DNA of 64,000 nucleotides from Escherichia coli O157 typing phage 13. A model generated the notes under the pieces. It was not told the origin of the DNA and did no database searches. It worked only from the letters and a program-made list of their open reading frames with translations. The stretch lies in the sequence record KP869111; one strand, written 5' to 3'. Position 1 is the stretch's first letter, and every line of letters begins with the position of its first letter. Shown here piece after piece: positions 2,881 through 60,563 of the stretch. The translations under genes were made by a program, and so were the position numbers.

Positions 2881-3566
<686 letters not shown>

Positions 3567-56591: not shown

Positions 56592-56750
56592 GTTTCAACC
56601 CTTTAATAGGAGATAACTCTTTACCCATACGTATGTCAGAAGTCCCATCAACCCATTGAACAGCATACGCTTCATTGATAATTCCAGCGGCGGTTTTAAA
56701 TTCATGGAGAACTTTAAAAATCATCCCAGGGATTCCAACACCTTTTAATT
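56581..56750 (-). CDS. hypothetical protein, 3' portion only (5' end lies in N-run)
   Basis: Open minus-strand frame from the N-run to TAA at 56581-56583. Confidence 0.4.
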
Positions 56751-56868
56751 NNNNNNNNNNNNNNNNNNNNNNNNNNNNNNNNNNNNNNNNNNNNNNNNNN
56801 NNNNNNNNNNNNNNNNNNNNNNNNNNNNNNNNNNNNNNNNNNNNNNNNNNNNNNNNNNNNNNNNNNNN
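56751..56868. other. run of N (masked/undetermined bases)
   Basis: 118 N. Confidence 0.95.
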
Positions 56869-56884
56869 CGTCCTTGGATGTAAA

Positions 56885-57534: not shown

Positions 57535-57900
57535 TTAGATATCAAATTCATTAAGAACTACATCAAAGATTGCTTCAAGATGTTCAGGTTTAGCTCGATG
57601 ACTCAGGATATGACGAATCCAAGTTTTAACCAGAAGTTCACGATTATCACCATTCCAGCAAGGATGAGTACCTAAATCGCGCTGACGGAAATCATCATCT
57701 AATGCAATTTTAAAATTTGAACCTTCCATCGTGATTGAAACCGTGATGCCATTTTCAAATCGCATATAAACGTAATTAGGAGTCATGCACTGTTCGATTT
57801 CACAAACTGTACCGTTTTCGTGTTTCCATAAGCAAATAACTTCAGAAGAACCAGCGATACCGTTAGAAACATATTTACGTTCGAAGTTGATGTAGTTCAT
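57535..57900 (-). CDS. hypothetical protein (121 aa), possible paralog of the next ORF
   Basis: Own early promoter; shared CMTP motif with adjacent ORF. Confidence 0.65.
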   Translation of the reverse strand: MNYINFERKYVSNGIAGSSEVICLWKHENGTVCEIEQCMTPNYVYMRFENGITVSITMEGSNFKIALDDDFRQRDLGTHPCWNGDNRELLVKTWIRHILSHRAKPEHLEAIFDVVLNEFDI

Positions 57901-57928
57901 TTTATTCTCCGGATGTTTAAGTTGTTTG

Positions 57929-57970
57929 TTGGTACAGGTCTATAATAACATAACCTGTACCAAAGTAAAC
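57929..57970 (-). promoter_or_regulatory. early promoter (GTTTAC - 17 nt - TATTAT) with perfect 10-bp inverted repeat TTGGTACAGG/CCTGTACCAA flanking the -10
   Basis: Inverted repeat 57929-57938 and 57954-57963 with the -10 in the 15-bp spacer. Confidence 0.55.
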
Positions 57971-57974
57971 TGTT

Positions 57975-58343
57975 TTATGCAACTTTAATCCAATTGTCTA
58001 AATTTAAAACACCTTTGGCTTTCATTTTTTCGATCAGGTTATCTGCTGTAATGCGTCCATTTTGATACCATGTAACATCTTCAGAGTAACCAGTTTCTTC
58101 GTCAACATATGTTTCTGAACGAATTTTACCGGTAATAATAGTTTTTAATTCGTATGTGTCACCTGTGAAAAAGTTTGCTAACACAATTTTCCAAGAGAAA
58201 TCATTTGAAGGACCTTCAGGGGTCATACAACTTACGAACTCAAATTGCTCTTTGTATAACATCCACTGGAATTCTTTAATTTCGATAGCTTTATAACCGT
58301 CGTGGTCTTTACATTTGATGTATGAGTTCAGATTGATTTTCAT
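57975..58343 (-). CDS. hypothetical protein (122 aa)
   Basis: Own early promoter and conserved leader CCGGAGAATAAAATG shared with downstream cassette. Confidence 0.65.
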   Translation of the reverse strand: MKINLNSYIKCKDHDGYKAIEIKEFQWMLYKEQFEFVSCMTPEGPSNDFSWKIVLANFFTGDTYELKTIITGKIRSETYVDEETGYSEDVTWYQNGRITADNLIEKMKAKGVLNLDNWIKVA

Positions 58344-58384
58344 TTTATTCTCCGGTTGTTTTATTGATTAGGTGGTACAAGTCT

Positions 58385-58413
58385 ATAGTAACACATCCTA
58401 CAGGAGAGTAAAC
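58385..58413 (-). promoter_or_regulatory. T4-type early promoter (GTTTAC - 17 nt - TACTAT)
   Basis: Consensus-like elements upstream of ATG at 58343. Confidence 0.55.
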
Positions 58414-58449
58414 ATCTTTTTAATCTTTTTCTGCCCTAAACGCACAAAA

Positions 58450-58467
58450 GGGAGACCGAAGTCTCCC
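58450..58467 (-). terminator. hairpin GGGAGAC-UUCG-GUCUCCC followed by UUUUG (minus strand)
   Basis: Perfect 7-bp stem immediately after stop of the small basic ORF. Confidence 0.6.
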
Positions 58468-58472
58468 TAAAA

Positions 58473-58652
58473 TTATGCAACAACCTTTCCAAAACGAGAA
58501 GCATCATCTCGAAGAACTGCACGTGCTCTGCGCATGATCTTCTCAACTGTTTGATTAATACGAGAGTTCGACCCACGCTTGTATCCAGCGCGTTTAGAGG
58601 TACCATCAACTTTCTTTTCAACTGCTTTCTTTGCTTTAGCTTGTTTTGCCAT
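58473..58652 (-). CDS. small basic protein (59 aa, K/R-rich)
   Basis: ATG-initiated ORF MAKQAKAKKAVEKK... ending before the terminator hairpin; preferred over TTG-initiated track ORF 58436..58621. Confidence 0.5.
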   Translation of the reverse strand: MAKQAKAKKAVEKKVDGTSKRAGYKRGSNSRINQTVEKIMRRARAVLRDDASRFGKVVA

Positions 58653-58808
58653 TATAAATTCTCTTTAAATGAAAATGCAGGACTTATTGACATTGCCTGC
58701 GCAAGCCCTCAAGGGGAACATAGGTTTTGGATATTTAACGACAGGATAACCATAAACCCGTCATCATACCAACCACGACTTAGACAGATAACCTTTTTCT
58801 GACGCGTG

Positions 58809-58837
58809 ATAGTACAAAATACATTCAAGAGGTACAC
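58809..58837 (-). promoter_or_regulatory. candidate early promoter (GTGTAC - 17 nt - TACTAT) inside the ORF-free region downstream of rIII
   Basis: One mismatch to GTTTAC; would give a ~150-nt leader for the small basic ORF. Confidence 0.3.
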
Positions 58838-58920
58838 CGTAAAATTGTCGGGGCGGTACTTCTAAAACATACCGATTCGCAAATCGATAATCAGACAATT
58901 CGACGGCTCCTCGATTTAAC

Positions 58921-59169
58921 TTACTTCAGGGTAATAATAAAATGACGTACTGCTTTACGAGCTGCTGAAGCCAGAGGCTTAGCATATTTCAGTTCATCTT
59001 TTGCTTCCAGTTCAGCAGCCAGAGTAGCCTGAGCAGGATTCAGATGTTTGAAATATCGCAGGATTTCCAGTGCTTCGGCTTCAACATCAATTGAAGCGCC
59101 GTAGTTTTCGTGACCGTTATTCCATGCGTTGCGTTGCAGTTCAAGAGCGTGTTGTAATTGTTTAATCAT
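58921..59169 (-). CDS. rIII: rIII lysis inhibition accessory protein
   Basis: 82 aa; matches T4 RIII from memory. Confidence 0.85.
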   Translation of the reverse strand: MIKQLQHALELQRNAWNNGHENYGASIDVEAEALEILRYFKHLNPAQATLAAELEAKDELKYAKPLASAARKAVRHFIITLK

Positions 59170-59285
59170 TTTAAATTCTCAATTCGAGATAATATTTAGT
59201 AGCCACGTTCGTCTGAATTTCACCTTCTTTCGACAGGTCTCTCAGTTGTAGGCTACCGCTTAGAAGAGTGTTCTCTTCATATAGT

Positions 59286-59293
59286 TATTTATA
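59286..59293 (-). promoter_or_regulatory. late promoter TATAAATA (minus strand) upstream of rIII
   Basis: Exact motif in the 31/rIII intergenic region. Confidence 0.45.
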
Positions 59294-59626
59294 TCACTTA
59301 TAAAGACACGGAATAGCTTTATAGTGGCATGTTACGAATTTCTGTTTAATTTCTTTAGGTTGTTTAAGTCCCAAAGCCACAAATGGATGTGGAACATTTC
59401 GAATTTGTCCAACTGGTAGTGGAGTCAAATCACCGACTTCAACAAAACCTTCAGGAACATCAGGACCTACAGAATGAACTACACATAGTTCAGGAACTTC
59501 ACCTTGAACACGTTTACCGATCACAAGTCCTGATTCGGTAACTTCTTCATCACCTGCTTGAGCGGGTTCAGAAACCAGAATGACATATTCACCAACAGCA
59601 CGAATTGGGAGTTGTACTTCAGACAT
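59294..59626 (-). CDS. 31: gp31 co-chaperonin (GroES-like)
   Basis: 110 aa; matches T4 gp31 from memory. Confidence 0.9.
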
Positions 59627-59655
59627 CTTATTTCCTTGTTGTTTGACGATAGATT

Positions 59656-59682
59656 AATAATACCATACTATTCGTAAAGCAT
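59656..59682 (-). promoter_or_regulatory. candidate middle promoter for gene 31: MotA box TATGCTTTA - 12 nt - TATTAT
   Basis: MotA-box consensus with proper spacing to -10. Confidence 0.5.
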
Positions 59683-59683
59683 A

Positions 59684-59992
59684 TTACATAAGAAGCAAAC
59701 GTTCTACCGGAGTACCATCAACCGAAATTACTTTATCAAGGCGGAAAGAACGCCACTGGCCTAACTTGGTATCGAATGCTCGAACTGATTCACGAGGTTC
59801 AGAACGAACTTCTGTTGCCGGATTGTTATTTTCATATTTGACTTCAAGTTCATCACGCGAAGCAAACATAGTGCGTACCTCGCCGTTAGCCTTTTCAAAT
59901 ACAACACAATGAACGCCTACAGACAGAATAGTTTTAATACGTTCACGAAGAACCATAGTTTCTTGTTCAGTTAAAATCATATTATTCACCAC
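59684..59992 (-). CDS. hypothetical protein (31.1 position)
   Basis: 102-aa ORF overlapping cd stop region. Confidence 0.6.
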   Translation of the reverse strand: MVNNMILTEQETMVLRERIKTILSVGVHCVVFEKANGEVRTMFASRDELEVKYENNNPATEVRSEPRESVRAFDTKLGQWRSFRLDKVISVDGTPVERLLLM

Positions 59993-60563
59993 AAAAGTTT
60001 CGGATTTGTTCCCAATTCAGAGAACGAAGATTATTACGAGAGTACTGAATTACTTCAATACCGGCTTGTTTTAGAATGTCTGCCCAATTTTCAGGAGATC
60101 TGTCATATAATTCTGCGTATACAACCTTTTTAATACCTGACTGTGTAATAGCTTTAGTGCAATCAGGACATGGAGAAAGTGTCGTATACAACGTAGCACC
60201 TTCAATAGAATTACCTTTACGAGCTGCAAACAAAATTGCATTCAGTTCCGCATGGATTTCGTTATTAGCGGACCATGCACTATGAGCAGCCCGATGTTCT
60301 TTAGCCAAAACAAAATTATCCACCCGTCCAAATGCTGTAGTGCCTTCTTTATGCCCAGCAACGATGACCGGGCTTGGTTTATTCTTCAACCAACCGTTTT
60401 CGGATGCATGTTCACAACAGTTAACACCACCGGCCGGGCTACCGTTATACCCAGTAGAGATAATGCGTCCATCTTTTTCAATGACGGCACCAACTTTCCA
60501 TGAACAACATTTTGATTCTTGAGAAATCAAATAAGCAATTTGAAGATATGTGCTAGCTTTCAT
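59982..60563 (-). CDS. cd: dCMP deaminase
   Basis: 193 aa; zinc-binding motifs HAELNAI and PCPDC. Confidence 0.95.
   Translation of the reverse strand: MKASTYLQIAYLISQESKCCSWKVGAVIEKDGRIISTGYNGSPAGGVNCCEHASENGWLKNKPSPVIVAGHKEGTTAFGRVDNFVLAKEHRAAHSAWSANNEIHAELNAILFAARKGNSIEGATLYTTLSPCPDCTKAITQSGIKKVVYAELYDRSPENWADILKQAGIEVIQYSRNNLRSLNWEQIRNFCGE

Follow-up and report, generated by a model that had tools for sequence, protein, structure and literature searches.

In a 64,000-nucleotide stretch of DNA from Escherichia coli O157 typing phage 13 (sequence record KP869111; hereafter the window), a 268-nt spacer (58653–58920) separates gene rIII from the ortholog of T4 gene 30.9. We conclude that this rIII-30.9 spacer is very probably a conserved, sense-strand structured RNA built of several modules. 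All genes of the locus lie on the minus strand, which is also the strand of every feature described below unless stated otherwise. A first-pass annotation, made from the sequence alone, had singled out the gap as a possible structured RNA between rIII and a small basic protein gene. This idea is borne out, since structure conservation across relatives gives covariation for two of the modules, the long hairpin M6 and the pseudoknot M1. The comparison set comprised 40 related loci gathered via the 30.9 protein (loci are designated here by L numbers). The spacer would work as RNA, as a mosaic of independently folding modules (M6, M7, M1, M2 and MC, in 5' to 3' order). It would be transcribed on the minus strand with rIII and 30.9, and transcription would end at an intrinsic terminator downstream of 30.9 (58446–58467).

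With 25 pairs in three helices, module M6 (58829–58912) forms a long irregular hairpin, which starts 9 nt past the rIII stop codon (58921–58923). The RNAalifold consensus on 14 distinct sequences has five pairs with compensatory changes. Paired cells amount to 98.9%, as compared with at most 62% in slid controls, and the covariation score of 0.136 (0.079 for shuffles) was reached by none of 500 shuffled alignments. The invariant G-U pairs make the structure specific to the minus (sense) strand. The apical hairpin of M6, UUAUCGAUU-UGCG-AAUCGGUA (58870–58890), differs by two compensatory pairs from its T4 version, UUAAUGAUU-UGCG-AAUCAUUA.

Module M1 (58719–58762) is an H-type pseudoknot. Its parts in the window are the stem P1 (GACGGG/CCUGUC), the loop UUUAUGGUUAU, the A-rich linker GUUAAAUAUCCAA and the 3' strand of the second stem, P2 (AACCUAUG); in general, P1 has 6–7 bp and its loop pairs with sequence 3' of the conserved A-rich linker GUUAAAUAUCCAAA. 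In the raw MAFFT alignment (A3) 75% of the M1 cells are paired, compared with 63% in shuffles (reached by 0 of 500) and at most 50% in slid controls. P2 is formed in the relatives by five different helices of 7–9 bp, namely UUGUUGGUU/AACCAACGG, UUAGUAGUU/AACUACUAA, UUGGUAGUU/AACUGCUAA, UUCAAGGUU/AAUCUUGGG and UUGUGAG/CUCACAA. Register shifts of 1 nt (the extra A of the T4 type, the loop of the L037 type) were left unresolved by both MAFFT and covariance-model alignment, and an alignment-free test of cognate against non-cognate partners was therefore used: loop-tail duplexes average 6.0 bp in cognate and 4.7 bp in non-cognate combinations. A search with a covariance model built on P1 of M1 (R1) gave a single match per locus, on the sense strand, in all 39 loci with 30.9 and an rIII-type spacer. 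The match in the window (58715–58763) scored 58.7 bits, and the 64 kb hold no further copy.

The remaining modules were recognized largely by inspection. M7 (58772–58810) is a weak candidate structure, consisting of an outer helix AUCACG/CGUGGU around the hairpin CAGA-AAAAGGUUA-UCUG (58785–58801). Inspection revealed a single compensatory variant, CAGC/GCUG, in L006 and L033; the module is absent from T4 and is a presence/absence polymorphism among the loci. M2 (58706–58716) is a small hairpin, CCCC-UUGA-GGG, followed by a conserved CUUG; the relatives have CCC-UUCGA-GGG, CCUC-UUA-GAGG or GCC-UUCGA-GGC, at varying positions. MC (58677–58700) is the hairpin GCAGG-CAAUGUCAAUAAGU-CCUGC, about 25 nt upstream of the 30.9 start codon. 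Between flanks that are conserved, the stem at the position of MC differs among the relatives (GGGAGC/GCUCCC, GUGGAG/CUCCAC, GAACUGG/CCAGUUC, GGCGA/UCGCC), and the loop UGUCAAUAAG is kept on a different stem in L029 and L038. In a stem-scan test of MC the observed sequences were not separated from shuffles. An N-padded alignment of the MC region proved mis-registered and was left out of the counts.

Conservation of the spacer as a whole is high. In the alignable part its identity to T4 is 95%, as compared with 87.6% for rIII, 89.5% for gene 31, 92.1% for 30.9 and 67.7% for 30.8. Rfam 15 gave no match at E ≤ 10 in this spacer or in that between gene 31 and rIII in the window, only sub-threshold chance hits elsewhere in 57800–59800, and no relevant match at E ≤ 1 in 11 related loci. 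Copies of the modules within the 64-kb window are confined to the rIII-30.9 locus, and Tandem Repeats Finder (TRF) reported no repeats over 58400–59300. The first-pass annotation had also described the gap as GC-richer than its flanks, which it is not: its G+C fraction is 0.39–0.41, that of rIII 0.43–0.48 and that of 30.9 0.43–0.45, and only the 30.8 side (0.33–0.35) is exceeded.

Some observations must be set against a structured RNA. The M6 alignment is shallow, its sequences are closely related, and the structure was derived from the same alignment. P2 of M1 has only 4–5 bp in the window and in the T4 type. The folding energy of the whole spacer is unremarkable (z about −0.7 on both strands), and the case for structure thus rests on covariation, not on stability.

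What might such an RNA do? A clue is provided by the way in which the modules are distributed. Reading the gaps of the 40 loci side by side, we found recurrent short modules in varied orders and combinations, with swaps and deletions. Some phages have M1 at a distance of about 300 nt from the 30.9 ATG, separated from it by other modules. One and the same module can, moreover, belong to the rIII leader in some phages and to the 30.9 leader in others. One such case is M4 (59198–59257), in the spacer between gene 31 and rIII, which was located in the window by a blastn-short match to a module of L011 and which in Klebsiella-type relatives takes the place of MC in the 30.9 leader. For M4 RNAalifold gave 17 pairs, nine with compensatory changes, and the conserved internal loops CUACAAC and GAACGUG; no Rfam match was obtained. 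The modules of these spacers are exchanged, reordered, deleted and replaced among T4-like phages.

A copy of M1 was also found outside the seed of the covariance model, in L059 (6795–6844, minus strand; 59.3 bits). It fills the 58-nt spacer between the tRNA-Asp and tRNA-Pro genes of an uncultured phage whose portal and terminase are not T4-like. Judging by its position, this copy would be freed as a small RNA by tRNA processing, and we infer that at least M1 can act alone. Most matches from two pattern scans of viral contigs were due to chance, and L059 is the only true extra copy; L170 and L173, considered as further copies, proved to be coding-sequence coincidences. As a separate observation, a gene for a 473-aa 'RNA-binding protein' (PHROG 850) is situated about 2 kb from the M1 copy of L059.

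M5 designates a module that the window lacks; T4 and many relatives have it, immediately 3' of either the rIII stop codon or M1. The gaps of 23 related phages each contain one unit matching a bacterial ToxI repeat above all shuffles. The published ToxI repeat is a 36-nt sequence, AGGTGATTTGCTACCTTTAAGTGCAGCTAGAAATTC (PMC4010927). The toxIN loci with which the units were compared, on plasmids of E. coli, Enterobacter, Pectobacterium and Serratia, have 2–10 ToxI repeats, a terminator and a toxin that belongs to PF13958 or is annotated as a member of the ToxN/AbiQ family. Loci of this make-up, with a PF13958 toxin, also exist on Salmonella and Klebsiella plasmids. Different phages match different variants: L011–L013 and L023 the classical ToxI (29–30/32–33 identities), L020, L022 and L030 that of Enterobacter hormaechei (27–31/32–36 identities), L024 and L034–L036 that of the P. 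atrosepticum plasmid pPA21A (34–40/39–47 identities), and L040 those of E. coli pCV839-15-p3 and Serratia (29/32 identities). The T4-type unit is diverged and closest to pPA21A, a weak match (28–29/38 identities) just above the shuffle maximum. Representative positions are L011:1218–1250, L020:1194–1226, L024:1107–1146 and L040:1398–1428, and the unit of T4 (L005) lies at about 3245–3280 on the minus strand. By reading, the two stems of the ToxI pseudoknot stay paired through substitutions (AGGU/ACCU to AGU/ACU; UUGC/GCAG to UCGC/GCGG or UCAC/GUGA). These units look like a family of pseudo-ToxI mimics that may be fitted to different toxIN variants. In the phage PhiTE such a device against abortive infection is established: an intergenic locus naturally contains 1.5 'pseudo-ToxI' repeats, whose expansion lets the phage escape ToxIN (PMC3475682). 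The searchable literature, including studies of T4 and toxIN (PMC9391042, PMC10853763, PMC5449768), makes no mention of ToxI-like units in T4-like phages.

On this basis our preferred, tentative reading is that the spacer modules may be stand-alone RNA decoys or mimics for RNA-binding host factors, which we put forward as a serious possibility rather than a probable one. It is favoured by the shuffling of the modules, by the copy of M1 in a tRNA cluster and by the ToxI-like units at the same site; the modules of the window would accordingly act in trans. The first-pass annotation had offered a small non-coding RNA as one of two alternatives, and this gains support from the module shuffling and from the tRNA-flanked M1 of an unrelated phage. 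M1, as an H-type pseudoknot, falls within the architecture of type III antitoxins, whose units have 31–62 nt; M6, a plain long hairpin, does not.

A number of results count against such a role for the window's own modules. No ToxI-like unit was found in the window (best local score 8, shuffle mean 10.5), whose spacer begins with GTTAAATCGAGGAG, which is only the junction 3' of T4's unit. M1 is single-copy and not tandem, and the window shows none of the tandem repetition (at least 1.5 units) of type III antitoxins. BLAST searches of 72,556 plasmids and 5,426 E. coli genomes with M1 or with the whole spacer found nothing, and none of 185,579 species genomes contains the exact core pattern of M1. 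With both kinds of search empty, no bacterial RNA for M1 or M6 to mimic was found; the same holds, in the plasmids and the E. coli genomes, for a cognate bacterial antitoxin of related sequence for M1 or the spacer. M1 also accompanies 30.9 in 39 of 40 loci, which a role in cis or a protein partner explains equally well. Given the missing ToxI unit in the window and the missing bacterial match of M1 and the spacer, the mimic or decoy role of the window's modules is suggested by association and architecture.

In a wider and, in our estimate, unlikely version of this proposal, the rIII-30.9 and gene 31-rIII spacers would together constitute a hypervariable 'RNA anti-defence island', in which M1, M6 and M4 would mimic antitoxins or RNA ligands of abortive-infection (Abi) nucleases and be swapped in an arms race, with gp30.9 as RNA-binding partner. 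The locus itself appears to be a hotspot of RNA counter-defence.

The best of the competing explanations is that the spacer acts in cis, as a leader that sets the stability and translation of the 30.9 mRNA, and that gp30.9 may bind M1 or MC as an autogenous operator. This is possible, but we judge it rather unlikely. The spacer does lie directly upstream of 30.9, M1 is almost always found with that gene, and the unit ends in a terminator of its own. In all cases a structured hairpin stops some 30 nt short of the ATG and is followed by a pyrimidine tract able to pair with the Shine-Dalgarno (SD) sequence; in the window the tract AUUUUC (58671–58676) can pair with GAGAAU (58658–58663). The same layout of hairpin and SD pairing precedes rIII, where the analogous hairpins are CCUC/GAGG and UCUC/GAGA. 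The protein itself, very basic and with a confidently predicted amphipathic helix, would be a plausible RNA binder. Ribosomal proteins bind their own leaders autogenously. Within T4, the pseudoknot operator of gene 32 is a precedent (PMC3014915).

Against a leader function, the order of the modules is shuffled and M1 can be as far from the ATG as described above, with other modules between; in L059 it lies between tRNA genes without a 30.9 gene nearby. The ToxI-like unit at the same site has an obvious role in trans. The SD-pairing hairpin (58658–58676) has a minimum free energy of −2.6 kcal/mol, no better than shuffles, with an SD pairing probability of about 0.5, and RNAalifold on the last 31 nt before 30.9 returned no consensus SD hairpin. 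The earlier suggestion that the leader controls 30.9 is hypothetical as it stands, and occlusion of the SD by the pyrimidine tract is at most weakly indicated. The decoy reading and a leader function are not exclusive, since the elements at the 3' end of the spacer are bound to make up the translation-initiation region of 30.9, whatever else they do; these elements would thus double in both capacities.

A second alternative operates on the DNA level. It holds that the gap combines an rIII terminator and a 30.9 early promoter in mobile promoter/stem-loop recombination cassettes, with the RNA structures as by-products. One element that speaks for it is an early-promoter-like sequence, GTGTAC-N17-TACTAT (58809–58837), with its −35 within the 3' strand of M6 and its −10 at the junction of M6 and M7. 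The sequence conforms to a T4-type early (sigma-70) promoter, defined by a −35 like GTTTAC, a spacer of 17 nt and a TAnnnT −10. The pattern GTKTAC-N17-TAYTAT has three matches in the 64 kb where 0.05 are expected, all on the minus strand and in the same gene cluster (one each upstream of 30.7, upstream of 30.8 and within the gap), so that the site in the gap matches two neighbouring early promoters. Promoter/stem-loop cassettes before 30.8 and 30.7 and the sharp module boundaries of the mosaic also agree with this explanation. The near-consensus promoter that the first-pass annotation had reported is present and statistically unusual, but it is not conserved: T4 does not have the 51-nt segment bearing the −10, and in L008 the spacing is 11 nt. 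For these reasons we consider it plausible for this phage only, where it may add internal transcripts. Reading the conserved leader as a MotA box or a late promoter was also considered and dropped, as no consensus is kept across the variants.

Further points make the DNA-level explanation improbable. The G-U pairs and compensatory changes are strand-specific, and the opposite strand would have A-C mismatches in place of the G-U pairs; the covariance model likewise matches the sense strand only. The promoter is missing in T4 although the modules are 95% conserved. The 'terminator-like hairpin' that had been placed after rIII (58870–58890) is in fact the AU-rich tip of M6: its stem has one or two G-C pairs and is inside the larger M6 helix, which does not agree with rho-independent termination, and the terminator scan made no call there.

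A genuine terminator is found at the other end of the unit. As the first-pass annotation had stated, GGGAGAC-UUCG-GUCUCCC followed by UUUU (58446–58467) lies downstream of 30.9. It is a GC-rich hairpin with an immediate U-run and a free energy of about −18 kcal/mol; the consensus terminator scan did not list it. An equivalent GC-rich hairpin and T-run stands 3' of the 30.9 stop codon in every related locus (−14 to −20 kcal/mol), with stems that vary among the relatives (GGACUCC/GGAGUCC, GGGAACC/GGUUCCC, GGGGCUCC/GGAGCCCC).

That the gap encodes micro-proteins, for example a TTG-initiated ORF of 44 aa (58764–58898), can be set aside as very improbable: open reading frames (ORFs) with TTG or GTG starts do exist, a GAGGAG precedes the TTG, and the related record KAW3E185 annotates a 37-aa coding sequence in the gap, but T4 has CTG at the start and a stop after three codons, the short ORF annotated by that record is closed in T4, there is no PHROG match, the substitutions are compensatory for pairing and not synonymous, and single-base indels between the window and T4 shift the frames throughout the conserved leader, which rules out a conserved reading frame there. 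The gap had originally been described as the longest non-coding stretch of the window, without an ORF above about 26 codons on either strand. For ATG starts both statements hold at a threshold of at least 27 or at least 40 aa. At a cut-off of at least 50 aa, however, the spacer ranks second after 56592–56884, and ORFs with TTG or GTG starts reach 83 aa: a plus-strand TTG ORF of that length crosses the spacer (58551–58802), and the minus strand has, besides the TTG ORF of 44 aa, a GTG ORF of 42 aa.

The gene that follows the spacer is an ordinary and known one. The ATG-initiated ORF 58473–58652, coding for a Lys/Arg-rich protein of 59 aa, is on sequence grounds the ortholog of T4 gene 30.9 and not new. 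The protein matches the profile of PHROG 1427 (phrog_1427, E 2.4e-31, residues 1–57) and has 65 homologous protein clusters in public data; 27 aligned homologs have 63–91% identity and an invariant core, SKRA.YKR.SN. All six point differences to T4 read off the alignment, with divergent N- and C-terminal patches left out, are synonymous, and the rival frame is broken in relatives, both as expected of purifying selection on the 30.9 frame. The rival, a TTG frame at 58436–58621, is spurious and has stop codons in diverse relatives; the original choice of the basic ATG ORF over it was right. The gene had been called unlisted, which is true of the ORF track then available, but NC_041863, this phage's own RefSeq record, already annotates it as YP_009592750.1. 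Like the T4 gp30.9 family it stands downstream of rIII and upstream of 30.8 and 30.7, on the same strand. The likeness to T4 30.9 extends to the sequence, the length (59 and 58 aa), the order rIII-gap-30.9-terminator-30.8-30.7 and the basic composition; the few residues that are substituted, close to the N-terminus or at the C-terminus, are nothing essential.

The gp30.9 family went earlier under the name 'uncharacterized 11.1 kDa protein in Gp30-rIII intergenic region'. The AlphaFold (AF2) model of gp30.9 is mostly one helix, with a confident C-terminal helix (residues 30–54), a low-confidence basic N-terminus and a mean predicted local distance difference test (pLDDT) score of 68. Searches of Pfam, NCBIfam and PADLOC gave no significant match, and a PDB profile search returned only a weak, non-significant segment of SlmA (E 0.25). 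In that segment the C-terminal helix RINQTVEKIMRRARAVLRDDASRFG (residues ~30–55) is weakly, and not significantly, like residues 122–146 of this nucleoid-occlusion factor. TifA (T4 61.4) is a small RNA-binding inhibitor of ToxN from T4 (PMC10853763); gp30.9 has no similarity to it (E 15). Several records (MZ868638, OR352942, PP658200 and others) name the 30.9 protein '1,4-alpha-glucan (glycogen) branching enzyme, GH-13-type', a label which on so tiny and basic a protein is evidently a propagated annotation error. For annotation, the outcome is that the true 30.9 frame is settled and the mislabel as glycogen branching enzyme is flagged.

The region is 100% identical to that of Escherichia coli O157 typing phages 3 and 6 (Mosigvirus, Straboviridae), and many RB69-like phages have 96–99% identity to it. 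Matches to the spacer occur in about 770 phage records. Upstream of the spacer lie cd (59982–60563), a 31.1-like ORF between cd and gene 31, gene 31 (59294–59626) and rIII (58921–59169). Downstream of 30.9 are gene 30.8 (57975–58343; Pfam match Phage_30_8) and gene 30.7 (57535–57900; Pfam match Phage_T4_Gp30_7). The T4 layout is identical, with rIII, a 244-nt gap and the 58-aa gene 30.9. Among the related loci, rIII is upstream of 30.9 in 38 of 40, always with a long gap (120–416 nt), and the order rIII, gap, 30.9 and terminator is retained in those 38.

Several side observations concern the neighbouring spacers. Canonical early promoters, GTTTAC-N17-TA(C/T)TAT, stand at 57942–57970 and 58385–58413, before 30.7 and 30.8, respectively. 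The 30.7 promoter lies between the arms of an inverted repeat, GGTACAGGT...ACCTGTACC, an arrangement that resembles the promoter-early stem-loop (PeSL) cassettes of T4-type phages. Gene 31 has a T4 late-promoter consensus, TATAAATA, directly behind its stop codon (59286–59293); next comes a conserved 5' hairpin, GAAGAG...CUCUUC, the apical part of which varies between phages. An SD-pairing hairpin, UCUC-GAAUU-GAGA, lies 3' of M4. About 20 related loci, but not the window, have in addition a module of ~140 nt, CGGCAAGUGCAUGCUACCCCGAGG...GCUAACGGUGUGCAACAGAUAAGAG (for example L011:1250–1390, L015:1200–1340 and L022:1215–1355), with compensatory changes between phages, a GNRA hairpin, apparent pseudoknot potential and no Rfam match.

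In summary, the observation of the first-pass annotation is confirmed in part and its interpretation is supported in part: the gene is ordinary and known, and the spacer is the interesting part. What emerges is a hitherto unannotated family of RNA modules, supported by covariation and absent from Rfam, in one of the few long non-coding gaps of T4. These findings also suggest why gene 30.9 should be so conserved, for which there has been no explanation. No lytic phage has been studied more closely than T4. According to a 2010 review, neither a riboswitch nor a small RNA acting in trans had been characterised functionally in it (PMC3014915).

The closest relatives of the spacer among known systems can be compared in several respects. 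The leader of gene 32 in T4 and RB69, like that of 30.9, bears a 5' pseudoknot in front of a T4-type gene for a nucleic-acid-binding protein; it is autoregulatory and consists of the pseudoknot and a downstream region overlapping the ribosome-binding site (PMC3014915). It differs in that there is no sequence similarity and that the 30.9 leader has more modules, in variable order, between pseudoknot and ribosome-binding site; binding by gp30.9 is hypothetical. T4 RNAs C and D are also structured RNAs encoded by a phage, and they lie in a tRNA cluster like the M1 copy of L059; their location in T4 is different, and a reading of rnaC and rnaD revealed no similarity to any module. The mobile PeSL cassettes of T4-type phages, reportedly described by Arbiol et al. 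in 2010, are likewise short early-region cassettes shuffled among T4-type genomes, and apparently canonical examples stand before 30.8 and 30.7. In contrast to them, M6, M1 and M4 have no promoter consensus of their own and show strand-specific RNA covariation, not a simple promoter-flanking palindrome.

From the type III antitoxins the window is set apart by the absence of ToxI-like sequence and of tandem repeats, and M1 and M6 differ from them in having no match in plasmids or E. coli; toxin binding by M1 or M6 is purely hypothetical. The antitoxins tenpI and cptI are H-type pseudoknots of 40–57 nt with a conserved stretch of A making A-minor contacts (PMC3401426, PMC12283969). Compared by description only, M1 shares with them the H-type pseudoknot, the A-rich strand and a size of about 50 nt. 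To our knowledge, PhiTE is so far the only phage with a known RNA-based counter-defence. It does not belong to the T4-like phages, but its pseudo-ToxI also occupies an intergenic locus, and relatives of typing phage 13 carry such units at the very site of the modules described here. Taken together, the modules and the ToxI-like units suggest that RNA-based counter-defence may be widespread and modular in the Straboviridae.

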